DNA of 35,271 bases from a virus (taxonomy: Duplodnaviria > Caudoviricetes), in IMG/VR virus record IMGVR_UViG_3300037047_000137, positions 1 through 35,271 of that record. One strand, written 5' to 3'. The notes beneath the pieces were generated by a model that worked only from the letters and a program-made list of their open reading frames with translations, made no database searches and had not been told where the DNA came from. Below are positions 15,236 through 34,093 of the stretch, in pieces; positions within the stretch are counted from its first letter, which is position 1; each line of letters opens with the position of its first letter. Made by a program: the position numbers and the translations under genes.

Positions 15236-16822
15236 CTACCTCCTCGACATGTTGGCCAGGGCCTCGGCAATGCGCTCGGGGTCAACCCGGTCGGCAATGG
15301 CCTCGGCAATCCGCTCCGCCATAACCCAGCCCACGGCGTCAATGGAGCCCTCGCCGTTGCGCGGCTCGCTGCCCGGCTCGGGCAGCAGCTCGTACTGCTT
15401 CAAGAGCTTTTGATCCCTGGACATCTGGCGGAGCCCCTCTTCGGCGCTCAACCCCTGCCGCGCCCATTCGATGCTCAGGTTGGTCGTCTTGTTGGCCAAC
15501 CGCACCTGCTGCGCCATCGCCTCTTTGTAGGGGTCCACGTGCTCGATACCGTCGAAGTGCCACGTGTGCGGCTCGGTTGCGCCCGGCTCCCAATCGCGCA
15601 TGTGCTGCGCGCGGGGGGTGAACTGGTAAAAGTCGTTCCACCGCGCGTAGATCGTGGAACAGTCCAGCCCCAGGTCATACTGCGCCGTGTCGATCCACTT
15701 GAAAAACGCCTGGTGATCCAGCCGGCCGGAACTGTAATTGTACGCCGAACTATCGCCCAGGCTGATGTTGTTGGGCTCGTACAGGCACCGGCCCATCTCG
15801 TTGAGAATCTCGCGCTTGAACTCGCGATAGGTCGACGCCGGCTGTTGTGCCTGCATCTGCGCCATCTTCCAGCCGGCCGGCAGCGTGAGCCCGGAGCCGT
15901 ACTCCAGCGATACGGCGTCCATCGGGTCCACCTCGACCGGCGCAAGCTGGGGATGCTCGGAGTAGAGCAACCAGGAGAAGCTGGCCACGTTCTCAGCGGC
16001 GGTCAGCACCGCCAGCGTGTACCGCCGGAGCTGCGCCCCCAGCCGGAACGCCGGGCCGATCTCGCACACCCCGCGCTTCTGCGCCCGCAGCGGCCGGAAA
16101 CGGTGTAGGATTTCCCCCGCCGGCTTGTTCTCGTACTCGCCCATGAAGGTCAAGTACCCGGTCAGGAAGGCCGACCCGCCAGGATGCTCCTTGAGCACGT
16201 CGTAAGACAGGGGGTTGCCGATCTCGTCGTACTCGATGCCGTCGGAGTAGTACTTGCGGCGAAGCTTGTCCATCTGCCCCGTGACCCGTGCCGCTTCGAC
16301 CACCTGAATGTCGAGCTTCACCGGATGCCGCAGCCGGGGGTTGATGACCAACGCCAGGAAGCATTCGCCGTCCTGGGTTTCGAGGATTTCGCACAGCCGC
16401 AGCTTCTGGCCCAGGCGGACCTCGCCGGCCCAGGCGTTGAACGAAGCCTGTTTGGCCTCGTCGTAGCTCTGACTGCCGCCGGCCTCGCTGGTATCGAGCT
16501 GCAACCTCGGCAGGCGCCCCACCACGTAGAGCGCCCGGGTGTCAACCATCGCCCGCAGATAGGCGTTGTTCCGGAGCTCGTAAGCCGCCCGGTTGCGCAG
16601 CGTCGCCCGGACCTGCGGCGAGGCCTCGGCGTCGCCCGACGTGCCCCTGGCCTCGTTCCAGACTTCCTTGAGCTGGTTGTCATTGCGTGCCGCATCGTAG
16701 GTCGCGCGCGGTGCCGGCCGGTGATGCGAGAGCCGGATCGGCCGGCCGAACTCGTCCAATATGGACAGCGCGTTGGCCCGGAACCGGGCAGGGGCGGAAA
16801 GTTCAAGCGTGCGCTCGCGCAT
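15236..16822 (-). CDS. Portal protein, lambda family
   Basis: 528 aa with YDAA, LRNRAAYELRNN, DGECF, DGIEYDEIGNP, RGV, YNYSSGRLD and VDPYKE motifs. Confidence 0.93.
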   Translation of the reverse strand: MRERTLELSAPARFRANALSILDEFGRPIRLSHHRPAPRATYDAARNDNQLKEVWNEARGTSGDAEASPQVRATLRNRAAYELRNNAYLRAMVDTRALYVVGRLPRLQLDTSEAGGSQSYDEAKQASFNAWAGEVRLGQKLRLCEILETQDGECFLALVINPRLRHPVKLDIQVVEAARVTGQMDKLRRKYYSDGIEYDEIGNPLSYDVLKEHPGGSAFLTGYLTFMGEYENKPAGEILHRFRPLRAQKRGVCEIGPAFRLGAQLRRYTLAVLTAAENVASFSWLLYSEHPQLAPVEVDPMDAVSLEYGSGLTLPAGWKMAQMQAQQPASTYREFKREILNEMGRCLYEPNNISLGDSSAYNYSSGRLDHQAFFKWIDTAQYDLGLDCSTIYARWNDFYQFTPRAQHMRDWEPGATEPHTWHFDGIEHVDPYKEAMAQQVRLANKTTNLSIEWARQGLSAEEGLRQMSRDQKLLKQYELLPEPGSEPRNGEGSIDAVGWVMAERIAEAIADRVDPERIAEALANMSRR

Positions 16823-17061
16823 CAGCTCTGCCCCCCGGTCGTCACCGTGCCGCCGTTGTGGATCGGGGAAATACGCATCCCGCGCGCGCCCGTGCCATCG
16901 GCCAGCGCCGCGTACTGGCTGCGGGCCTCGCGGAGCTCGGTCAGGCTGGTATAGGTGATGCTCCTGTCGCCGAAAGACAGCGTCTGCGCTCCGCCCCCGG
17001 CCAGCATCGCCAGGATCGCGGCATCTATCGCTTCGACTATCGCGCTCGCGCTCGTACTCAT
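16822..17061 (-). CDS. Head completion protein (lambda gpW-like)
   Basis: 79 aa from ATG 17061, with QTLSFGDRSITYTSLTELR. TGATG overlap with the portal gene. Confidence 0.8.
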   Translation of the reverse strand: MSTSASAIVEAIDAAILAMLAGGGAQTLSFGDRSITYTSLTELREARSQYAALADGTGARGMRISPIHNGGTVTTGGQS

Positions 17062-17091
17062 TCCTGCCCCACCGAGGCGCTGACCAGGGCC

Positions 17092-17183
17092 AAAAAGAAA
17101 GCGGGGCTGTCGAAGTGTCGGCTCCGACAAGCCCCGCTTCTTTCTGCTTGCGCCGGCTGGGTGGTGGCCGCCACCCGGTCCGG
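17092..17183 (-). terminator. Two-hairpin leader with an intrinsic (possibly bidirectional) terminator upstream of the head genes
   Basis: Hairpin 1 at 17153-17183 (CCGG.CCGGGTGG / CCACCCAGCCGG). Hairpin 2 GCGGGGCT...AGCCCCGC at 17101-17137, flanked by T-rich runs on both strands. Confidence 0.65.
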
Positions 17184-17479
17184 ACCCTGAATCAGACTAC
17201 CTCATGCCACCCGCCTCCGGTTGTCCCGCGCCTCATGCCTACACTTTGACGGAAGGAGAGGGGGAAGGCAAGAAAAATCTCCTTCCAGATTCCGCGTGGC
17301 GGAAAATAGGTGCAAGCTGCGATCCGTGACGCTGAAGCCGAACTTGGCTTTTCCCGGTTCAGCAGACCTATCAGGGTGCTGGAAAAGGCCGGAGGAGCAG
17401 TTACCGGACTGTCCGCCGAAGCACCGGTGTTGCGCAACCGCCAGATGTGCAGCGCCATGCGTCAGGCATTCGGCAGAAC

Positions 17480-17508
17480 TTGACATGGGCCGCGCCCACG
17501 GCAATAAT
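17480..17508 (+). promoter_or_regulatory. Sigma70-type promoter facing the cassette array (Pc equivalent)
   Basis: TTGACA (17480-17485), 17-nt spacer, AATAAT (17503-17508). Confidence 0.7.
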
Positions 17509-17549
17509 CACTTTTCGCTGTGCCGGGCGGCCTGTGGCCATCCGTGGAC

Positions 17550-17587
17550 CCGCTAAAAGATGGGCTTGTCCTGATCGTTGTTCGACC
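17550..17587 (+). promoter_or_regulatory. attI-like entry site (G^TTCGACC core at 17580-17587)
   Basis: A GTT core with no upstream attC palindrome, between the promoter and the first cassette. The left boundary is uncertain. Confidence 0.5.
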
Positions 17588-17600
17588 GAAAGGATAGCAC

Positions 17601-18194
17601 ATGGCGATTTCAATCTACTGCCCTCACTGCCACAAGCACACCGAATTGAGCATCGCTCCTGCAAAGTGCGATGCCCATGGGCGCCCCCACCAGACCCAGG
17701 CCGTCTGGCGCACGGAAGATGGTCGGAAGTGGTGGATCGGCGTGTGCAATTCATGCCAGCAACCATCGCTGGTCCAAGATCGCGGCATTCATGTGTTTCC
17801 TCAACCATTGCCCAATCCAACAGACCCCAATGTCCCGAAAGATCTGGCCAGCGACCTGAATGAGGCAAAGATGTGCTTTGCTGTTCAGTGTTATCGAGCA
17901 TGTGCGGTCATGGCTCGAAGGTGTATCCAGAATGCCTGCATCGCAAAAGGCGCGAAGACAGACAATTTGGTTGCCCAGATCAAGGAACTCACAACATCTG
18001 GCATGATCACTAAAGACGTTGAGGAGTGGGCCACAGTCGTACGCTGGATCGGAAACGACGCGGCTCATCCAAACAAGGATCAGGTAGCGAAGGAAGATGC
18101 TGAGGACGTGCTCGAGCTGGCAGAGCAGTTCCTTCATGTAATCTTTGTAACACCTGCACTCGCCAAAGCGCGGAAGGCGGCGAGAGGGAAATGA
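17601..18194 (+). CDS. DUF4145 (HEPN-like) protein with an N-terminal zinc ribbon; cassette 1
   Basis: CPHC and CNSC, then DLNEAKMC..CAVMARRCIQ and VRWIGNDAAH (RxxGNxAAH motif). Confidence 0.88.
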   Translation: MAISIYCPHCHKHTELSIAPAKCDAHGRPHQTQAVWRTEDGRKWWIGVCNSCQQPSLVQDRGIHVFPQPLPNPTDPNVPKDLASDLNEAKMCFAVQCYRACAVMARRCIQNACIAKGAKTDNLVAQIKELTTSGMITKDVEEWATVVRWIGNDAAHPNKDQVAKEDAEDVLELAEQFLHVIFVTPALAKARKAARGK

Positions 18195-18197
18195 AAG

Positions 18198-18268
18198 GTC
18201 GAACCATCGCCTGCACCGTATTCCTCACTCGCGGCGGGTTCGAAATCCGGTGAGGCGTGACGTTGGGA
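18198..18268 (+). other. attC recombination site (71 bp, canonical)
   Basis: R'' GTCGAAC, 5 nt, L'' CCTGCACC (extra G), a self-complementary centre, L' GGTGAGG, 6 nt, R' GTTGGGA. Confidence 0.9.
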
Positions 18269-18328
18269 ACTGGAAGAAATGAACACAGACAAAGCCATAC
18301 GTGATCCGCGAAAGCGCAATCAGTCCGT

Positions 18329-18360
18329 TCCAAACCTGCCGCTGAGCCCAGACGTTAGCC
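18329..18360 (+). other. Internally deleted attC site
   Basis: R'' TCCAAAC, 5 nt, GCTGAGC, 6 nt, R' GTTAGCC. The L'' and L' boxes appear fused through a shared GCTG. Confidence 0.65.
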
Positions 18361-18415
18361 CAATAGCACTCAAGGCAACCGATGATCACAGGACAGAAAG
18401 CGAAGGGAAGCGTAA

Positions 18416-19516
18416 ATGGTACCGGGTAAGCCGCTGAACCGAAGCCTGCACGCCGCCAGGGCGGCCAAGCAGGACGAGTTCTATACCCAGCTTTCCGACA
18501 TCGAGAAAGAGCTTGTCCACTACAAGACGCACTTCGGGGACAAGACTGTTCTGTGTAACTGCGATGACCCGCGCGTCAGCAACTTCTTCAAATACTTCGT
18601 CAACAACTTCGAGAGGCTGGCGCTGAAGAAGCTGATTGCGACGAGCTATCAGAACGACAAGCCCGATCTGTTTAGCCAGCACAAATCAGGCAAGGGCATC
18701 TATTTCAAGTACAGCGGTGAACAGAAGAAGCAGCGTCTTCCCGACCCCGCGAAGATCATGCCTCGCAAACTGCAAGGCGACGGCGACTTCCGCAGCGAGG
18801 AATGCGTCAGCCTGCTCAAGCAAGCCGACATCGTCGTCACCAACCCGCCGTTCTCGTTGTTCAGGGAGTACGTTGGGCAATTGGTTGAGCACGATAAGAA
18901 GTTCGTCATCTTGGCGAATCAGAACACTCTATCAACCAAGGACATTTTCGAACTTGTTCGCAGTAACAAGCTCTGGCTCGGTTACAACAGTGGGGACATG
19001 GCTTTCAGAGTCCCCGGCCACTACGAACCACGAGAGACTCGTTTCTGGGTTGATGAGCACGGTAACAAGTGGAGAAGCTTTGGCACCATGTGCTGGCTCA
19101 CCAACCTTGACATTGCAAAGCGACATGAAGAACTGATTTTGTACAAGAAGTACGATCCGGTAGTGTATCCCACTTACGACAACTTCGATGCTATCGAAGT
19201 CAGTAAGGTCGAAGAAATACCGCTCGACTACAACGGCACCATGGGCGTTCCAGGCGGGTTCCTCACCAAGCACAACCCTGACCAGTTTGAGATTCTTGGA
19301 ATTACGAAGACGTGGTGCGGGATGGCATCGAAGAAATACCCGACACAGATTCAAGTTGATGCCGACGGAAACAGGAGCGAAGTATCTAAACTGAACGACG
19401 GTGCCGTGCTCAGGTCGCCAAGCCGGCCTACTGGCAAGACCCACTACATCGTCGACGGCAAGTATTTCACTCAGACGTACCCGCGCATCCTGATTCGCCG
19501 AAAGGAGCAAAAGTGA
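18416..19516 (+). CDS. Adenine-specific DNA methyltransferase, EcoRI-methylase family
   Basis: AKQDEFYT, VLCNCDDP, GDGDFRSEEC and catalytic VVTNPPFSLFREY. Confidence 0.92.
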   Translation: MVPGKPLNRSLHAARAAKQDEFYTQLSDIEKELVHYKTHFGDKTVLCNCDDPRVSNFFKYFVNNFERLALKKLIATSYQNDKPDLFSQHKSGKGIYFKYSGEQKKQRLPDPAKIMPRKLQGDGDFRSEECVSLLKQADIVVTNPPFSLFREYVGQLVEHDKKFVILANQNTLSTKDIFELVRSNKLWLGYNSGDMAFRVPGHYEPRETRFWVDEHGNKWRSFGTMCWLTNLDIAKRHEELILYKKYDPVVYPTYDNFDAIEVSKVEEIPLDYNGTMGVPGGFLTKHNPDQFEILGITKTWCGMASKKYPTQIQVDADGNRSEVSKLNDGAVLRSPSRPTGKTHYIVDGKYFTQTYPRILIRRKEQK

Positions 19517-20595
19517 AGATCGAACTCCGGGAAATCACGATCGAACAACTGGTCGACGGTTACGAAGACCGGCAGGAATCGGGCGTCGTCGGCTTCGGCG
19601 GGAAACTCGACATTCGCCCGCCTTATCAGCGGGAATTCATTTACAAGGACAAACAGCGCGATGCGGTGATCAACACCGTCCGGAAGGATTTTCCGCTGAA
19701 CGTGATGTATTGGGCGGTGAGAGATGACGGTGGCTTTGAGGTGATTGACGGACAGCAGCGGACGATTGCGGTCTGCCGGTATGTCAACGGCGATTTTTCC
19801 ATCGGCGACATCTATTTTCACAATCTCCAGGACGATCAGCAGGCACAGATTCTCAATTACAAGTGCATGGTCTATTTTTGCTCGGGCACCGACAGCGAGA
19901 AGCTGGAATGGTTCAAAACGATCAACATCGCTGGCGAGAAACTCACCGATCAGGAATTGCGAAATGCGGTCTATCACGGGCCGTGGACGGCGGAGGCCAA
20001 GCGGTATTTCAGCAAGACCGGTTGTCCGGCGTCCGTGATCGGCAGTGATTACGTCGACGGCAGTCCGATCCGGCAGGAGTTTCTAGAGACGGCGATTGAC
20101 TGGCTATCCGAGGGCCAGATCGACAAATACATGTCGGATCACCAACACGACGCGGACGCCAAGCCGCTTTGGGAATATTTTCAGAAGGTCATTGATTGGG
20201 TGAAGGCAACGTTTCCCAACTATCGCCGAGAGATGAAGCACGTTCATTGGGGGCCGCTTTATAACGAGTTCAAGGAAAAGAAGCTGAATGCGGAAAAGTT
20301 GGCAAAAGAAGTCGCCAGGCTAATGGAAGATGACGAAGTGGGAAAGAAGTCCGGGATTTATCCGTATCTGCTGACGAAAGACGAACGACATCTCAACCTT
20401 CGAGCCTTTTCGGATAAGGAGAAGCGCGAGGCATACGAGCGGCAAAAGGGAAAGTGCGTGAAATGCAGGAAGAAGTTCGACATCGGAGAGATGGAGGCGG
20501 ACCACATCAAACCATGGCACGAGGGCGGGAAAACCAACGCGACCAACTGCCAGATGCTTTGCCGGGAAGACAATCGAAGAAAGTCCGGAAAATAG
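19513..20595 (+). CDS. DUF262 (ParB-like/GmrS) plus HNH endonuclease
   Basis: IRPPYQREFIY, VIDGQQRT and FKTINIAG; C-terminal CVKC...EADHIKPWHEGG...NCQMLCREDN. GTGA overlap with the methylase gene. Confidence 0.9.
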   Translation: MKIELREITIEQLVDGYEDRQESGVVGFGGKLDIRPPYQREFIYKDKQRDAVINTVRKDFPLNVMYWAVRDDGGFEVIDGQQRTIAVCRYVNGDFSIGDIYFHNLQDDQQAQILNYKCMVYFCSGTDSEKLEWFKTINIAGEKLTDQELRNAVYHGPWTAEAKRYFSKTGCPASVIGSDYVDGSPIRQEFLETAIDWLSEGQIDKYMSDHQHDADAKPLWEYFQKVIDWVKATFPNYRREMKHVHWGPLYNEFKEKKLNAEKLAKEVARLMEDDEVGKKSGIYPYLLTKDERHLNLRAFSDKEKREAYERQKGKCVKCRKKFDIGEMEADHIKPWHEGGKTNATNCQMLCREDNRRKSGK

Positions 20596-20600
20596 AGAGA

Positions 20601-20679
20601 GGCTAGCAGTCGGCTTCTCTCGTGCGCGAGGCCCACCGCGGGCTTCGCGATTTTTCGATGGTGAAGCGTAGCGTCAGAC
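20601..20679 (+). other. Degenerate attC site closing cassette 3
   Basis: GGCTAGC 5 nt after the stop (GGCTAAC expected), partial L boxes GCTTC/GAAGC, central hairpin CGCGAGGCCC/GGGCTTCGCG, and R'-like GTCAGAC. Confidence 0.55.
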
Positions 20680-20988
20680 CCTCTCCCCCCCCACCTTCCA
20701 CCTCTCGCCGCATTCAGATTCCAGGCACACCCGATACTGCACATTGCCCACCGTCCCGTTGCTGCGCGTGCGCAGCGACCCACACTTCGGGCAACGGACC
20801 CTGGTCGGGAAGCTGTAAACCTCCCCCTGCCGAGGCTGGCCCATATACGTCCTTTCCCCGCAGCACCTACAAATCCTCCACCCCGGCCCGTCTCCTGACA
20901 ACAAGTCCTTGCACCCGCACTTTTGGCAGGCGATCTCTCCCTTCTGCTGCACCTCCGACAGCCTGACAGGCTTCTTTTCCCCGCTCAC
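20674..20988 (-). CDS. Double zinc-ribbon protein (Ogr/Delta-like late regulator candidate)
   Basis: GTG at 20988 overlaps the terminase stop. CQKC..CRCC and CPKC..CLESEC. Confidence 0.65.
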   Translation of the reverse strand: MSGEKKPVRLSEVQQKGEIACQKCGCKDLLSGDGPGWRICRCCGERTYMGQPRQGEVYSFPTRVRCPKCGSLRTRSNGTVGNVQYRVCLESECGERWKVGGERV

Positions 20989-23209: not shown

Positions 23210-24031
23210 TCAGCCCGCCTTGGCCGTGCCGACTTCGGCCGATTGCCGCAACGTCTTCCCGTGGACCACCGCGTTGAACTCCGCCAGCAAGTCCTCCCTC
23301 AAGAACTCGAAATGCATGTTGCCGTTGACGAACCACCGGCACCGGACGTACTCGTTGGCGTACTCCCGGCAGGCGCGGTCCTTCATCGCCTGCTTGATCT
23401 GCGTCGGCAGGTCCTCAGGGTAGCGGGCCACCCCTTTGCCATCGAGCATCTTGAAGACCGTATGCAGACTCCGGAGAATCTTTTCGCGGTCGTAATTCAG
23501 GTGCGGGGCCTCGCCCCGTGCCCATGAGTTGACCATCCAAGTCTTGATCACCTTGCGCCCTATCTCGAAGCGCGCGTTCTTCTCGTTTGTCTTGTAGTGG
23601 TCCCAGTTGCCCGGCCGGAGCCATTCCAGGACCTCCGCGCACGCTTCCTTGAACATCTGCGGAAGCTCCTGCATAAAGCTGCGGCAGAGGGCTTCGACGT
23701 TCTCTGCGGTGAACTCCGGCACGTCCGCGCGTTCGATCTGCTCTTCGATCTCCTTCCATCGCGTAGCGCTGCACGCCTCCTGCACCTGCATCTTGGCAAT
23801 GACCCGCCGCCAATGATCTTTCAGGTGTTCCTGCAGGGCATGTTCAAGATCGAAAGTCAGGTCAGAAGCATAGCGCTCGTGCTTCTTGCGAATCTTGACA
23901 GTCCTGCAGCACCGTTCCGCGCACTCATGGAGCTCCCGAATAGCCGCAATCCCGGCGTCGTACTCCGCCACCTGGGAGGCAATGGTCTCTCGCGGCGCAA
24001 GCGTCGGTGGAATGAAGTCGTAAAAACTCAT
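23210..24031 (-). CDS. DUF4942-domain protein
   Basis: PEFTAENV, YKTN, FKMLDGK and RWFVNGNMHFEFLREDLLAEFN motifs. Confidence 0.8.
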   Translation of the reverse strand: MSFYDFIPPTLAPRETIASQVAEYDAGIAAIRELHECAERCCRTVKIRKKHERYASDLTFDLEHALQEHLKDHWRRVIAKMQVQEACSATRWKEIEEQIERADVPEFTAENVEALCRSFMQELPQMFKEACAEVLEWLRPGNWDHYKTNEKNARFEIGRKVIKTWMVNSWARGEAPHLNYDREKILRSLHTVFKMLDGKGVARYPEDLPTQIKQAMKDRACREYANEYVRCRWFVNGNMHFEFLREDLLAEFNAVVHGKTLRQSAEVGTAKAG

Positions 24032-24047
24032 GGTCTCTCCTCCGTTT

Positions 24048-25013
24048 TCATGCGTACTGCACCCAACACACCCCGTGCGCGTGAATCTCCAGCGCCATCA
24101 GCGCCTTCACCGCCATCCGCAGCGTGTAATTGGTCGTGGACACGTCATCCAGTACAAATACCACTTTGCCCAGGATGCCCCTCACCGCCTTCGTGACCTT
24201 GATCTCGGGGTGCGCCGCGAATCTCCCCCGCCGCCGCTTATCCCACGGCTCGGAAACCTGCACGAACGGCACGTCGATGATTTTCGAGAGCTCCCGGCAC
24301 ACCACGTCCATCGGGTGCTCTTTGTCCAGGTTGCGGATGCTCCTCGGCGCCGCGGTGATGGCCTGAATCTTTCCGAAGCGGTCGTTCTTCTCGAAAAACT
24401 CCACGAAGTCGGTCAGCATCATTTCCCCGCACGCGACCGGATCGTCCTCCTTGACGTTGATGAAGTCCGCCCAATCCACCGGGTCCATGTACCGCTTGAG
24501 CTTCAGCGCGAACGATCCCAGCGACACCCGCTTGAGGTGGAACGGCCCCTTGCCCCGCTGCCGGCCCCCGGTCTCCTCCTCGGTCGCTTCGCTCCCGGCC
24601 GGCGCTTCGGGCGCCTTCGGCTCCGCCTCTTTCTCCCCGCCATCGCCCGGAAAGAACAGGCTCGGCCGGATGATCTTCACCGGCAGCCCCGCCCGGCGCG
24701 CCCGCTTGATCGTGTCCCACGTCCCGCCCCGATCTTTCTCCGTGAACGCCACCACCAGGTCCGAATCGTCAACGATCCGCTGATTGCGGGCGTAGTAGGC
24801 CTTCGTGAACTCGTGCCGCTCCTTGCAGCCGGCCAACTCCGGCAGGTGGCTCACCCACTGGAGCCCGCGCCTTTTCGCGCAGCTCACCGCCGCCTCGTCC
24901 ACCCCCTTCGCCCCGCCGCTGACAATCGTCACCCCACCCGGCAGATCGTCGATGAACCACTCCACCAACTTGAGCTGCGGAAACGCCCGTGACCCGACAA
25001 TCCCAACCCTCAT
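24048..25013 (-). CDS. SLOG (YspA/DprA-fold) plus type I phosphoribosyltransferase (ComF-like) fusion
   Basis: ATG at 25013 with a GGAGGG SD. SLOG motifs GIVGSR, IVSGGAKGVD, RNQRIVDDSDLVVAF and GGTWDTI, an acidic linker, then the PRPP loop VFVLDDVSTTNYTL. Confidence 0.82.
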   Translation of the reverse strand: MRVGIVGSRAFPQLKLVEWFIDDLPGGVTIVSGGAKGVDEAAVSCAKRRGLQWVSHLPELAGCKERHEFTKAYYARNQRIVDDSDLVVAFTEKDRGGTWDTIKRARRAGLPVKIIRPSLFFPGDGGEKEAEPKAPEAPAGSEATEEETGGRQRGKGPFHLKRVSLGSFALKLKRYMDPVDWADFINVKEDDPVACGEMMLTDFVEFFEKNDRFGKIQAITAAPRSIRNLDKEHPMDVVCRELSKIIDVPFVQVSEPWDKRRRGRFAAHPEIKVTKAVRGILGKVVFVLDDVSTTNYTLRMAVKALMALEIHAHGVCWVQYA

Positions 25014-25059
25014 TCCCCGGCCCTCCAAACAACTGCACACAGTCTGATGGGTTTGCTCT

Positions 25060-25284
25060 TCATTTCGCCCCGTACCCATGCCGCTTCAGCAGCCATGCCG
25101 TGTACCTCACCAGGTCAACCCGCCCCTTCGCATCCACCGGCGCCCCCGCCCTCACGTCCTGCAATATCAAGTCTTCGGTGATCACCTCTCCGGCCGGCGC
25201 CAGGCGCAGCGCCGCCGCGAGCTGCGCCGGTACCAGCCCCACGGCCTGCTCTGCCTTCGCTCTCCCCCCGCGTCGCTTCGCCAT
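25060..25284 (-). CDS. Small terminase-subunit-like HTH protein
   Basis: 74 aa from ATG 25284, with GAPVDAKGRVDLVRYTAWL. Similar to the TerL N-terminus; the function is inferred. Confidence 0.6.
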   Translation of the reverse strand: MAKRRGGRAKAEQAVGLVPAQLAAALRLAPAGEVITEDLILQDVRAGAPVDAKGRVDLVRYTAWLLKRHGYGAK

Positions 25285-25286
25285 TC

Positions 25287-26021
25287 TCAGATTCCCGGTA
25301 CCGGCCACTTCACCAGCGGGTTGACCGACTCCCGCCCCTTGCGCGTCTCCGCCACCACCGGTCCCCACTTCCGCCGGAAGGTCGCCATCTGCTCGAGCTC
25401 CGCCTCCATCGTCCTGCTCGCCGCGCAGCCGCCCTTCATGTCCAGATGCCCGACCATGTAATGCCAGGCATTGAACCTCAGCACCCGGCGGTACCGGTTC
25501 AGCACCTGCAACGAAAAGTCGTAATCTTCCTTCAACGGCAACCGCTCGTCGAAACGGATGTCCGCCTTCACGATGCCCATGAACGGCCCGAGAATCGGCG
25601 ACAGCAGCGAAAACGGCGAGTACTCCCGATAGAACATCGGGTCGAACTGCTGATTGACTCCCCACAGAACCGTGCCGATCTCCGCCGCCATCCTGAACCC
25701 GTGCTCGATGAAACGTTCGATCTCGGCCGGCGACTTTCTCCGCCTTTCCCCGTTCTCGTACCGCGCAAACGCCGTGCAGTCATCATCGGCCATCACCAGC
25801 CGCTCGGTCCCCGCGTTGTCCAGGATCCAGTTCCTGACCACCGCCATCCCCCGGCCGTTGGCGCTTTCGGGCATCACGAGCATCCTGGTCTTCGGGTGCG
25901 CCCTTCGGTACGCGTCGGCCTCGCTCTTCGCCACGCACAACACCGCCCGCGGGTACACCCTCAAGCTCGGCACTCTCCCCGGCCGGCGGTAGCTCGGGAT
26001 GAACACCTGCCAATCAGACAC
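25287..26021 (-). CDS. GREB1-like / TET-associated glycosyltransferase (GT-A fold)
   Basis: IPSYRRP, RNWILD, MADDD, KEDYDFSLQ, GGC and KWG motifs. The GTG at 26021 overlaps the ParB gene end. Confidence 0.82.
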   Translation of the reverse strand: MSDWQVFIPSYRRPGRVPSLRVYPRAVLCVAKSEADAYRRAHPKTRMLVMPESANGRGMAVVRNWILDNAGTERLVMADDDCTAFARYENGERRRKSPAEIERFIEHGFRMAAEIGTVLWGVNQQFDPMFYREYSPFSLLSPILGPFMGIVKADIRFDERLPLKEDYDFSLQVLNRYRRVLRFNAWHYMVGHLDMKGGCAASRTMEAELEQMATFRRKWGPVVAETRKGRESVNPLVKWPVPGI

Positions 26022-26661
26022 GGGTGAGCCTCCGGACAACGGGCCCACCCTTGATCACCCGACCGACACCCTTGCGCATATACCCTGGCCGGCTGTCGCG
26101 CGTCTTCACCTGCTTGAGTTCCAGCACCTCCTGCGCCACCTGCCAGTCGAGCGAGTTGTCGAAGTACAGCACGACGTAGTTATGCTCTTCCAGGAGCTCA
26201 GCCGTCACCACCACCTCCCCCGTTTCGCCTTTCTCGGGCGCTTTCAACCCCGGCAGCTCGATCCCCTCCAGCCTCAGCGACGCCGACAGGTCCGGCAGCT
26301 CCACCTTGAGGTCCGCGAGGATCTCCGCCACCCCGTCCGTGAACTCGCCTTCGATGGCCCGGTTGTTGAGCGCCAGGGCCAGCGCAGCCGCCCTCTTCGC
26401 CGGCAGGCTGACCACCACGCACGGCGCGGTGCTGACCCCCAGGTCGACGAGTTCCCGGTGCCGCTGGTGCCCGCTGACAATCTCCCACCGCCCCCGGATG
26501 CGGTTCACCACGATCGGCTGCACGCAACCGAACTCCTCGATGGAAGCCCTCAGCCCCGCCCTCGCCGCCGGCTTGATCTCCCGCGGGTTCTTTTCCCACC
26601 CCTTCAGCTCCGCCAGTTTCAGCGTCCGCACCTCCGGTTTGCTCTTCACGTCATGGCTCAT
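26014..26661 (-). CDS. ParB/Srx N-terminal domain protein
   Basis: ATG at 26661 with a GGAGGG SD. NPR, SIEEFGCVQPIVVN, IVSGHQR and ALALNN motifs. Confidence 0.88.
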   Translation of the reverse strand: MSHDVKSKPEVRTLKLAELKGWEKNPREIKPAARAGLRASIEEFGCVQPIVVNRIRGRWEIVSGHQRHRELVDLGVSTAPCVVVSLPAKRAAALALALNNRAIEGEFTDGVAEILADLKVELPDLSASLRLEGIELPGLKAPEKGETGEVVVTAELLEEHNYVVLYFDNSLDWQVAQEVLELKQVKTRDSRPGYMRKGVGRVIKGGPVVRRLTRV

Positions 26662-26954
26662 CCCTCCTTGTGCGTTTTGCTTAAGTTCCTTCCCGCCGCC
26701 GCCGATAGATTCCCAGACATCCCAACCCGGGGTCATGGCCTTGCGCCATGTCGGCCGGCAGACCTTGTGCACCGGCCCCGGCGATGCTACACCATCGTCG
26801 GCCCGGACTACCCGTTTATCGCAGAACCTTTGCCGCGGGGGCGCTGATTGACCCCAAGAACGACACCAACCCCCGCTGCATCGGGTCGGGGAACACGGAG
26901 GTTCCCCGGCCTTGACCTTCGTCCCCCGCCAGAAAAATAACCCAAAAATCCTTG

Positions 26955-27005
26955 GAGATAGCGACCGGCGCCCTTCTTCGGGGGGGGGTGGCCGGAAGGA
27001 CCCGT
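26955..27005 (-). other. Putative cos packaging site (cosQ plus cosN)
   Basis: The minus strand reads ACGGGTCCTTCCGG, with GGGTCCT (27003-26997) followed 23 nt later by GGGCGCCGGTCG. This matches the lambda layout GGGTCCT-23 nt-GGGCGGCGACCT. Confidence 0.7.
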
Positions 27006-27056
27006 GAGGGGAATCCCCACACGCACATATCACTTTTGCTTGAACCCCGCGAAAGT

Positions 27057-27237
27057 AAGTTGGCGGCTTGTGTCCGCCAACTTTCCCGGACCGGGTAAAG
27101 TTGGCGAAAGTTGGCGGAAAAAGACACACACCTTTAGGTGTGTCTTTTTCGCCAACTTCGCCTACCCGGGTCCGGGAAGGTGGCGGACTGCAAGTTGGCG
27201 GCCGAAGTTGGCGGTCGCCAACTTTCTCCGCCAACTT
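27057..27237. repeat. Iteron cluster and large imperfect palindrome (candidate replication origin)
   Basis: AAGTTGGCG or its complement at 27057, 27075, 27098, 27108, 27150, 27192, 27205, 27216 and 27229, plus a 1-mismatch copy at 27177. Central palindrome GAAAAAGACACAC..CCT TT AGG TGTGTCTTTTTC. Confidence 0.85.
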
Positions 27238-27257
27238 CGAGAATGATATAATCCGGG

Positions 27258-28424
27258 TCATTTCTCGCCCCCGGTTCTCGCCCTGAAGTGCAGTCCGCCT
27301 CCCCGTTCCCCGACCTTCGCTTCGAACAGGCCACAGGCCTTTGGCCCGTCGCTTGCTGACAGTTCGTCCAGGCCGTGGCTGCTGATCACGCCGGCCACCA
27401 GGGAGCGCACAGCGTCCCTGGAGAAGTGTTCACGGCCGTAAACGATCTCCACAAGCTCCCGCTTGGACGTCCATCGATCGGTCTGCAGGTAGGTGCAGAA
27501 CGCCGCGTCATTGAGCGCTTCGGGTGGCTTCTCGCGCACCACCTGCGGCCGGGTTCTCTTCAGGCGTTCGGGGTCGTGTTCGGTTGACTCCCAGAGCGGG
27601 TAGTTCCATCGGAGCACGATGGGTTCGGGCTTCGGCCAAGTCCGGGTGACGGCCTCCGCCACGAAGCAATCGGCTTCTTCATGCTCCCGAAGGATCAGGT
27701 GGGAGTCGGTCGCCCCACTGATGGCGCCTGCCCCGCGGCCGACCTCGGTGACGGACTTCCCCGCCTGATTCCCTTTCGACGCGTGATGGATCACCACCAC
27801 GCCCGACCGCTCCAGCGTCGCCGACATCGTGTCGATCTGGTTGTAAACCTGCGCCATAGCGGCGTTGTCATTCTCCGAGCAGCCTTCCGGCAGGAAACGA
27901 TAGAGGCTGTCCAGGATCACCAGGACCGGCGGATTCTCCATGAGGTGCTGGATGACTGAATTCAGTTCGTCCAGGGGCTTCCATTTGCCTCTGAGCGTTG
28001 CGATCATCATGTGATTTTCGACCTCTGGCGGCAACTCCATCGTCTCCCTGACCGCCTTCAGCCTCGCCGAGATCGTTTCTGGGTGGAGCTCGTTGTCGAT
28101 GATGGCCACCGGACCTGGCGCGCAGAACCAACGGTGGTTGAGCCACGGCCGTCCCGCAACCGCTGACAGTGCCAGGGAATACGCCAGCCACGATTTCCCT
28201 ATCTTTGACGGCGCAACGATGTTCAGCGTCTCCCCCTGGCGCAGGAGGCCATCGATCACCGCCGGCCGGTAATCGCTGCCGAATCTCGAGCGAAGGTCCG
28301 GCAGGCTGTAGAGTCCTTCCTCCCTGGCCTTCCTGGCCAGGGCTTCGGTGGTCAGCCGCTCGGTTTCGAGCCTCAGCCCGTCCGGGCCCAGAATCGCCCC
28401 CACGTCGTTGGCGTCGATCTTCAT
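27258..28424 (-). CDS. AAA_25 / RepA-type (RecA-fold) replicative helicase
   Basis: Walker A APSKIGKS, LVILDSL, IHHASKG and GRGAGAISG. ATGA overlap at 28421-28424. Confidence 0.88.
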   Translation of the reverse strand: MKIDANDVGAILGPDGLRLETERLTTEALARKAREEGLYSLPDLRSRFGSDYRPAVIDGLLRQGETLNIVAPSKIGKSWLAYSLALSAVAGRPWLNHRWFCAPGPVAIIDNELHPETISARLKAVRETMELPPEVENHMMIATLRGKWKPLDELNSVIQHLMENPPVLVILDSLYRFLPEGCSENDNAAMAQVYNQIDTMSATLERSGVVVIHHASKGNQAGKSVTEVGRGAGAISGATDSHLILREHEEADCFVAEAVTRTWPKPEPIVLRWNYPLWESTEHDPERLKRTRPQVVREKPPEALNDAAFCTYLQTDRWTSKRELVEIVYGREHFSRDAVRSLVAGVISSHGLDELSASDGPKACGLFEAKVGERGGGLHFRARTGGEK

Positions 28425-32345: not shown

Positions 32346-33746
32346 TCATGCGCTTAAGAGCTCCCGGCAAAGGGCGGCGGCGGTGAGCACCGGAACCGCG
32401 TTGCCGATCTGTTTGACCTGTTTGTCGCGACACCCTCCGAATATGTAGCCAGCCGGAAAGGACATGGCCGCGGCCAGCTCGTGGGGCTGTAGCATCCGGA
32501 ACGTAATATCCAGCCGCTCCCCGGATACGAGCCCGTAGCGATCCTTGGTCGTCAGCGTCGCCAGCGGTTCCTGGATCGACCGCGCCCCTCCCTGCCCGTG
32601 GTACTTGATCAGGAACGGCTGCACGATCCCGCCTCCGCCGCGGCCGGCGGTCACGGTCTGCAATGGGCTGTCTATGCTCCTCGGGGCGTTGCCCCGGTAG
32701 TAGCCTTCTGGAGGCAGCAAGAATGGACGGACCAGCCCGTAACGGTTCGACGTGTCTTGAACCGGGAGGGGCAACTCGATGTCATGCACCCGGCCGGCGC
32801 CATCGGAGCGGCCGGCGTGATTGCCCTGATAGCGCACCAGGAACGGCCGAACAAGCGCGATGTGGGCAGGACTCGTAGTCACGGTGGGGACCGGAGCGTC
32901 CACGCTGCGAAGGCCCCGATTGCCATAGATCATTACCAGGAAGGGCTCGGCGGCCGAGCCCCAGAATCTCTCGATGCCGGCGGCGATCCGCTCCAGCGTC
33001 CGCGGCGCGAGTGGATGCTTACGGCCGAAGACGCTGCGGCCCGGGAGCGACCAGTCGATCACCTCGCTTGCCGACCGCCAAGGCGGCAGCAGGTCGCCAG
33101 CCCTACAATGCGTCGGGGTTGGCCACGGCACCGGCCGACGGCCCCGCACGGCGGCGATGAACAGCCGCACCCGACTGGTTGGGTCGCCGTAGTCTGCCGC
33201 ACACAACAGGCGGTCTTCAACCGTGTAGCCGAGCGATCGCAGCGCCGCAAGAAATGCGCGGTAGGTCTCGCCCCGACGCGACTTCAGCGGCTTCCCGTCC
33301 GAGCCCAACGGCGCCCAGTCGCGAAACTCGCGGACGTTCTCGATAAGAACCGACTTCGGCCGGCAGACCTCCACCCACCGCAGCACGCACCACGGGGTTG
33401 AGCGCTTCTGGTCGCTACGTGGCTTGCCCCCCAGAGCATTGCTGTGGTGCGTGCACTCCGGGCTGGCGGTTATCAGGTCGATGCGCTCGCGGCCAATGAC
33501 CGCTCGCGGGTCAAGCCCGGGAACCTCGATGCCCAACTCGGTCACAACGGGCTGCAGCGTCCCGCAGATGTGTCGTGCATCTGGATGGTTCGCCGCATGG
33601 CTCTCGATGGCCAACGGCCAGTGATTGATGGCGGTCAGACGCAGCCTGCGGCCCAGGCCGGAGGCCGCCAGTTGCAGTCCGGTCGAAGTTCCTCCTGCAC
33701 CACAAAACAGGTCAATAGCACGAATCTCCCTCCTGCTATCGATCAT
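32346..33746 (-). CDS. C5 cytosine DNA methyltransferase (phage orphan type)
   Basis: DLFCGAGG, SPECT, IENVREF, YGDPTSRVRLF and QIGNAVP. ATGA overlap at 33743-33746. Confidence 0.93.
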   Translation of the reverse strand: MIDSRREIRAIDLFCGAGGTSTGLQLAASGLGRRLRLTAINHWPLAIESHAANHPDARHICGTLQPVVTELGIEVPGLDPRAVIGRERIDLITASPECTHHSNALGGKPRSDQKRSTPWCVLRWVEVCRPKSVLIENVREFRDWAPLGSDGKPLKSRRGETYRAFLAALRSLGYTVEDRLLCAADYGDPTSRVRLFIAAVRGRRPVPWPTPTHCRAGDLLPPWRSASEVIDWSLPGRSVFGRKHPLAPRTLERIAAGIERFWGSAAEPFLVMIYGNRGLRSVDAPVPTVTTSPAHIALVRPFLVRYQGNHAGRSDGAGRVHDIELPLPVQDTSNRYGLVRPFLLPPEGYYRGNAPRSIDSPLQTVTAGRGGGGIVQPFLIKYHGQGGARSIQEPLATLTTKDRYGLVSGERLDITFRMLQPHELAAAMSFPAGYIFGGCRDKQVKQIGNAVPVLTAAALCRELLSA

Positions 33747-34093
33747 GGCCGTCTTTCCTCCACCAGCACCCGGACCTGATAGCTCCCGACGGTCTCCTGC
33801 CGATACGTCCACGTGATCCGCTGATCGCCGTCATCCACCCCCAACGCCTTGGCCACCCCATCGCGGACGTGCTTTGCCGAGGTGGCAAGGTTGTCGTCAT
33901 CGAGCCAGCCCTTGCCGAATCGCGTGATGGTTACCGTCAATGGCAGCCGTGGCCGGCCGCGACGATGAATCTCGTTCGCCGTCAGCAGCAGCGCAGCTTC
34001 CCGCTGCCGCTTCGCGCGTCTTGCCCGCGAGCCCCAATGCTCGCGCTCATTGGTCTCGCTGACCAAACGGCAAGGCCACGTAAAATCGAACAT
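33743..34093 (-). CDS. RusA-like Holliday junction resolvase
   Basis: LDDDNLATSAKHVRDGVAKALGVDDGD catalytic pattern. ATG at 34093. Confidence 0.75.
   Translation of the reverse strand: MFDFTWPCRLVSETNEREHWGSRARRAKRQREAALLLTANEIHRRGRPRLPLTVTITRFGKGWLDDDNLATSAKHVRDGVAKALGVDDGDQRITWTYRQETVGSYQVRVLVEERRP

Follow-up and report, generated by a model that had tools for sequence, protein, structure and literature searches.

How does a tailed phage come to carry what looks like an integron cassette array, and can such an array still take up and release genes? The question is raised by an island in the 35,271 nt of DNA analysed here (the window), which make up the complete virus record IMGVR_UViG_3300037047_000137 (Duplodnaviria; Caudoviricetes). 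The minus strand of the window encodes tail, head and replication genes, and the island (~17312–20673; GC content 0.542 versus 0.651) reads in the opposite direction. An initial annotation had described it as an integrase-free array of cassettes with defence-type genes, antisense between a zinc-ribbon gene and gpW, a placement that profile matches of the flanking genes bear out. We found that the island is real, integron-derived and mostly frozen: it has a promoter and an attI-type entry site of its own, ahead of genes that match models of defence systems. What is new is that this promoter and entry site form a pad on the phage that is homologous to pads on chromosomes of the likely host lineage, without an adjacent integron integrase gene (intI).

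The pad opens with a Pc-like cassette promoter (TTGACA-17-AATAAT; 17480–17508, plus strand; match 11/12), located 71 nt ahead of the entry GTT and at the very coordinates first proposed for it. In a promoter scan this was the sole promoter-like site in the 16.8–21.2 kb region, a result that is not significant on its own because shuffled sequences yield 1.5 sites on average. The predicted promoter keeps its position upstream of the entry site within the family of related pads described below. The predicted attI-type entry site itself (17552–17586, plus strand) comprises an L-like box (TCCTGAT), a 4-nt spacer and the crossover G17580|TT. A GTT entry site had been suspected here from the outset, and it is now better supported, since its homologues on four contigs and at seven chromosomal loci join different genes at the same GTT. 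No remnant of intI was found upstream of the promoter when all six frames of the window were searched with IntI profiles. The label 'integrase-free' holds for the window, although ~8.8 kb of the ~44.1-kb genome (~20%) lies outside it; this remaining part is not adjacent to the pad, which lacks the neighbouring intI of a complete integron.

The promoter and entry site (17480–17586) are one member of a multi-copy family. Four other contigs, in metagenome runs X1 and X6, match 17471–17579 at ~84–88% identity, differ from one another and then continue into other sequence; their loose ends have GTTAGGC at the place of 17580 and promoter homologues upstream. Within each run the depths of these contigs are alike (14–17 and 203–225, with the phage at roughly 1.1 and 11 times those values), which is consistent with all four belonging to one genome. 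An identical IMG/VR contig (L001) stops inside the pad, at position 17527, which fits a pad that is repeated in that metagenome. A pattern derived from the pad copies had five matches in 185,579 genomes, of which one, in the Planctomycetota metagenome-assembled genome (MAG) G001, could be aligned with the phage pad over 130 nt including the promoter (71% identity). The other four were dropped because their promoter region did not align, and the one examined fully lies inside a coding gene on the opposite strand. G001 holds five exact copies of the family motif, as compared to none for a reversed control, and G356, from the same order, holds two more. Matches in G382, G431, G436, G415 and G395 were set aside, as they had no promoter or cassette layout and appeared by eye to be coding sequence, and six further matches at the level of the phylum were unconvincing on inspection.

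When eight pad copies were aligned, conservation stopped at an invariant TGTT, and each copy stood ahead of a different gene. A start codon follows the GTT by 17–21 nt in six of the eight, with genes of 103–239 residues, and a promoter-like site was found by pattern in six copies (71 nt before the GTT in three). R''-like remnants could be seen by eye at the stop codon in five of the seven chromosomal copies, and at none of the seven loci was intI adjacent. Near one pad motif in G356 lies a stretch (L139:7825–15000; G356:C4, ~135.8–143 kb) in which a repeat core, CRACGGCCTTCGG...AAAT, occurs 11 times at intervals of 470–1060 bp between small genes; it resembles a cassette array, gives no match to our attC model, and has the pad motif near its start.

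The layout of the pad family is one that recurs beside genuine integron integrases. IntI above the cut-off is encoded in 76 of 401 Planctomycetota genomes, and in 13 of 30 intI loci from this phylum the layout AAY-N4-GTT points away from intI, as compared to 3 of 30 on the opposite strand; gaps of 3, 5 and 6 in place of 4 occur at 3, 1 and 2 of the 30 loci, respectively. The family consensus CCCAAT-CATT-GTT shares this layout, with most copies reading AAT-N4-GTT. By layout and by junctions, then, the pad appears to work like an attI. In many Planctomycetota integrons (L140–L169) the array lies downstream of intI and runs in the same direction, so that the integrase gene does not include promoter and attI, which could come away together.

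Behind the entry site follow three cassette-like units of 682, 92 and 2319 bp, and the initial annotation had counted all three as cassettes. Only the first ends in an intact attC. This 71-bp site (18198–18268, plus strand) has R'' GTCGAAC, L'' CCTGCACC with an extra G, L' GGTGAGG and R' GTTGGGA, and forms the R''-5-L''...L'-6-R' hairpin with the extra base, AAC/GTT ends and bottom-strand orientation that define an attC. It was the only match in the window to a strict attC grammar, which was matched in one of 500 shuffles of the island and in none of 60 shuffles of the window. It was also the top match in the window (bottom strand, 21.9 bits, E = 0.0015; next best 12.8) to a covariance model that we built from 12 intI-linked attCs of other Planctomycetota, a model independent of the phage and distinct from that of IntegronFinder; other attCs of intI arrays score 24–64 bits with it. 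The site first called a canonical attC is therefore a true one. Numerous further contigs from the same runs match this stretch alone at 85–95%, as expected of an attC family. The DNA of the first two sites had no match in four genomes of the order of G001, a search made without a positive control.

The two other sites are remnants. The second unit (18263–18354, plus strand) is a 92-bp gene-less cassette remnant whose core pair has one mismatch. It runs into a collapsed attC of 32 bp (18329–18360, plus strand), in which R'' is followed by 5 nt, a lone GCTGAGC as the one L box, 6 nt and GTTAGCC, a likely product of deletion between two L boxes; a stable fold is absent. The third site (20601–20679, plus strand) is a degenerate attC-like end in which AAC has become AGC and R' begins with GTC for GTT, and its central 10-pair hairpin with a T run forms an intrinsic terminator at 20625–20656. 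The collapsed and degenerate motifs are thus present where they had been described, but neither was matched by the covariance model even at E ≤ 10, and as working sites they are not confirmed. Simple folding z-scores set none of the three sites significantly apart from shuffles, and Rfam gave no match at E ≤ 1. The circle test that had been offered for the array, in which the 5' core of a cassette is the reverse complement of the box at its 3' end, does come out as reported (GTTCGACC at 17580 and GGTCGAAC at 18197 are a perfect pair, and the other two core pairs have one mismatch each), but it is weak by itself because the perfect 8-mer occurs three times in the window; what is informative about its copy at 18197 is its location 3 nt past a stop codon. 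Decay of the sites increases from first to last. Integron cassettes enter at the head of the array, and with head entry this is the order to be expected.

The genes carried by these units are of the defence type, as originally proposed, and match PADLOC models. The first cassette (gene at 17601–18194, plus strand) encodes a zinc-finger protein with a HEPN-like DUF4145 domain that resembles PD-T7-4 (E = 8e-17, with no cut-off given for that model) and has an intact RWIGNDAAH motif. A DUF4145 homologue in G003 has ends that look by eye like those of a cassette, but it gives no match to the attC model. The third unit encodes an EcoRI-family adenine methyltransferase (18416–19516, plus strand; PF13651, E = 1e-127; PADLOC MTase_II; NPPF intact) and a DUF262/GmrSD_N protein with an HNH nuclease domain (19513–20595, plus strand; REase_II, E = 1e-136), the start of which overlaps the methylase stop. 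With adjacent methylase and nuclease and the motifs NPPF, YQR and DGQQR all intact, the pair is a predicted type II restriction-modification system; elsewhere, DUF262 is typically found in type IV GmrSD enzymes (PMC4619093). The nuclease shares 88% identity with a Fimbriimonadales protein in a cluster of 144 members, and in 5 of 17 plasmid records the methylase-nuclease pair lies under the match, so that the pair appears to be a widely mobile unit. No solved structure matched the methylase. GAATTC is not depleted in the window (five observed, 4.2 expected). Within 17050–18190, contigs from an RNA run cover 17590–17999 only and nothing of 17050–17589, a comparison that has no silent control stretch and gives a weak hint that the DUF4145 gene is expressed. 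Judging by domain content, the cassette products may defend the lysogen, through HEPN-type abortive infection and restriction-modification.

The nuclease has company elsewhere in the phage that deserves mention. Upstream of terL, at 23210–27261 and 32346–33812 on the minus strand, lie genes resembling those for DNA modification (DUF4942, SLOG, a TET-associated glycosyltransferase, a ParB domain and, further on, a C5 methylase). The DUF262 nuclease family is known for cleavage of modified DNA, which makes this set notable beside such a nuclease in the same phage.

The island is continuous with the phage genome. In two of the four runs compared as contigs (possibly the source of the window itself), one contig each, of 44,183 and of 44,108 nt, contains the whole 15.5–22.5 kb stretch without a difference. 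A chimeric assembly, which would have overturned the initial annotation, is therefore rejected, and because the two contigs are differently permuted the genome is probably circular with a length of ~44.1 kb. Half or more of this 7-kb stretch is present in 10 of the 14 listed runs, which are groundwater and coal metagenomes from one year.

On its left side the island is bounded by phage sequence that we could align with relatives L055 and L059 up to ~17311; this segment (17062–17311, minus strand) comprises the leader and likely late promoter of the gpW-portal genes, and the island begins, on the left, at its upstream end. Beyond it lies the gpW-like head-tail adaptor gene (16822–17061, minus strand; matches to PHROG head-tail adaptors, 73% and 53% identity to relatives). 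Between this edge and the promoter, 17312–17479 is foreign DNA that matches a chromosomal pad copy at 71% from 17454 onwards and gives no IntI-profile match in any of six frames. The right side is formed by the zinc-ribbon gene that follows terL (20674–20889, minus strand, start not fixed; weak zinc-ribbon matches), which stands in the same place in relatives.

Comparison with relatives shows what this position holds elsewhere. We collected 48 loci with both the end of terL and the start of the portal gene, 30 of them distinct, and in six of the 30 the gap exceeds 1.2 kb (1.7–7.1 kb, as compared to 4.2 kb in the window). The inserts in these six are unrelated and mostly antisense, with HEAT-repeat, SUKH, regulator and AAA genes, and since relatives hold other inserts there the slot is an ordinary accessory hotspot; among the relatives found, the pad is particular to this phage. 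The two closest are L059 (TerL 65%), with an empty site, and L055 (TerL 70%), in which a low-GC insert of 250 bp (L055:4060–4310) occupies the same place and has a strong antisense promoter (TTGACA-17-TAGAAT) and a frame of nine codons only. This insert contains a GTT and was considered as a further pad, but it has no score with the pad profile. In a distant relative, terL is followed immediately by an antisense gene for 843 residues (L047:506–3037, minus strand) that weakly matches AAA and looks defence-like; the zinc-ribbon gene is apparently absent there. In run X11 a contig from a 98–99% identical relative departs from the window at 17231, leaving the pad and the DUF4145 gene uncovered, and is uninformative (56% of the run, low depth). 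For the protein at the left end of the window we found no relative.

Prophages of the same terminase family (36–43%) occur in G001, G356 and G402, with values of 40–42% given for G001 and G356. Because of these prophages, and of the pad family in G001 and G356, the host is likely a member of the Planctomycetota. G001 alone has six near-full terminase genes of this family (L124, L127–L131), and at several of these loci antisense inserts follow the zinc-ribbon gene, including Rhs-like and SUKH immunity-like genes.

How, then, was the island loaded? We lean towards the view that the phage pad serves by itself as an integron landing pad, where an integron integrase from elsewhere placed three cassettes in sequence. 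The slot between the zinc-ribbon gene and gpW would hold one copy of the promoter-GTT unit that is dispersed in Planctomycetota without adjacent integrase, and an integrase supplied in trans would have inserted the cassettes one after another, probably the restriction-modification pair first and the DUF4145 gene last. That loading took place on the spot, at least in part on the phage, also seems to us somewhat the better bet. The last core (G|TCAGAC) shares bases with the zinc-ribbon stop codon (20674–20676), and the array is not followed by host DNA, the outcome to be expected had the first cassette been inserted into phage DNA. In the lysogen, the promoter would drive the cassette genes antisense to the late genes, with transcription ended by the terminator. 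Cassette 1 alone is predicted to be still excisable, and new cassettes may still enter at 17580.

Several results weigh against this account. The phage copy of the pad has GAT in place of the consensus AAT, and the junction reading at 20673 is uncertain because the C-terminus of the zinc-ribbon protein has diverged. Only two of the eight pad copies pass the core-complement test at one mismatch or fewer, and the chromosomal copies give no matches to the attC covariance model. The family motif was absent beside intI in all 30 loci (best score 1.0 versus 36–55), so the name attI rests on layout and junctions, and neither G001 nor any of 62 genomes of its class yielded an IntI above the cut-off; these are mostly MAGs, from which absence cannot be concluded. 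The host itself is an assignment by relatedness. On the phage side, attC matches are lacking in all 44 relative loci (564 kb), no relative scores with the pad profile, which has no match outside the known copies, and viral contigs gave no matches to an exact attC-family pattern or to two pad patterns. Finally, no excised or alternative cassette and no joint that skips a cassette was seen in contigs of four runs, and the same block, half or more of it, recurs in 10 runs. The initial annotation had proposed a swappable platform on the phage, to be recognised by attC-flanked variants among relatives; the slot is indeed variable, but among the relatives found it holds no such variants, and the empty sites and the recurring block lean towards a single acquisition. 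As a platform that swaps on the phage, the proposal is not supported.

Some of these results fit a one-off capture, in which the pad would have received its cassettes while in a host chromosome, after which the slot would have taken up the 3.4-kb block in one piece like any other moron, expressed but frozen. The unrelated antisense inserts of relatives, the absence of the pad from all of them, the unchanging block and the ~170 bp of foreign sequence that precedes the promoter all agree with it, and Vibrio phages are reported to have captured chromosomal integron segments (PMC9892861). We nevertheless consider capture rather unlikely: on the right the block ends in a core-like G|TC at a phage stop codon, with no host flank, and attC1 is intact, as compared to none of seven chromosomal pads with a scoring attC. 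The repeat might instead be a mobile promoter and no attI, next to which cassettes landed at secondary GWT (attG) sites, as IntI inserts cassettes genome-wide at GWT and those near promoters are expressed (Loot et al., 10.1101/2022.09.11.507474); the lack of the family motif beside intI would fit this too. That history is improbable, since the attI-type spacing is kept and all eight aligned copies end at the invariant TGTT, beyond which different genes start at a constant distance, and random use of attG sites would hardly give a junction at one base in every copy. Least plausible of all is a split but complete integron with an IntI-like recombinase of the phage's own in the 8.8 kb outside the window. 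This fifth of the genome offers room for one, and a 68.8-kb contig holds island genes, but in relative L114 the corresponding region has the gene of an ordinary phage integrase instead of IntI, with a marginal IntI-profile score (E = 0.03), and we regard the idea as very improbable.

A stand-alone pad loaded from elsewhere, our preferred reading, is related to several known arrangements without coinciding with any. Integrons in ordinary tailed phages had been called rarely reported, yet Qi et al. 2023 (PMC9892861) list three integrons, one In0 and 17 attC-site clusters that lack an integron integrase (CALINs) in 10,705 phages, so phage-borne CALINs are already published; their phage attCs are IntI1 substrates. 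Like those CALINs, the island belongs to a tailed phage, consists of cassettes bounded by attC, lacks intI and includes methyltransferase cargo; unlike them, it has one scoring attC by our model and two unscored remnants, below the two-site threshold of that study. Shewanella prophage M16-3 (PMC9892861) likewise has a CALIN that begins with an attI of its own, but that prophage also contains a complete integron, whereas here the pad family is dispersed without intI in the likely host lineage. A single detectable attC without integrase and with attC decay by slippage after insertion characterises single attC sites lacking integron integrases (SALINs) at attG sites (10.1101/2022.09.11.507474); in our case an attI-type site and two attC remnants accompany the scoring attC, and entry is at a conserved, promoter-linked and repeatedly used site, not at random GWT. 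The intI-Pc-attI platform of integrons (Cury et al. 2016, PMC4889954) shares with the island the promoter, the GTT crossover and cassettes in one orientation, and differs in its adjacent intI. Because sites 2 and 3 go unscored, standard tools would report a single attC and no cluster here; more generally, since two attCs are required and attI is found by exact match to classes 1–3 only (PMC4889954), current tools miss such pads. Small restriction systems of types II and IV and PD-T7-4 are also frequent cargo of chromosomal integrons (Darracq et al., 10.1101/2024.07.02.601686); here, by contrast, such genes are carried by a temperate phage.

Prophage morons are low-GC antisense genes that sit in a late operon and bring a promoter and a terminator of their own. 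The island resembles them in all of this and in a slot that varies among relatives, and it differs in being built from integron parts that could be reloaded site-specifically. In the literature covered, which mostly excludes subscription papers, we found no description of dispersed solo attI sites, nor of solo pads common to a host lineage and its phage.

IntI acts in trans on CALINs (PMC9668308) and recombines secondary sites (PMC10127599), the latter being a possible way for pads to move. Tentatively, one may picture a distributed integron, with several pads per Planctomycetota chromosome and one on a temperate phage, all loaded in trans by a visiting IntI; the phage would then reload its defence slot in place and also carry pads and cassettes from host to host, among genomes that show no integrase themselves. 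It is likely that phages make use of the integron gene-swapping system and help to disperse it, with swapping on the phage itself unseen. CALINs and SALINs are usually taken as integron wreckage or stray insertions; if the picture is true, a recurring promoter-bearing docking site without integrase would make them active satellites. Temperate phages would gain site-specific swapping of defence genes and, as the Fimbriimonadales match of the nuclease may indicate, cassettes would have a route for traffic between phyla.

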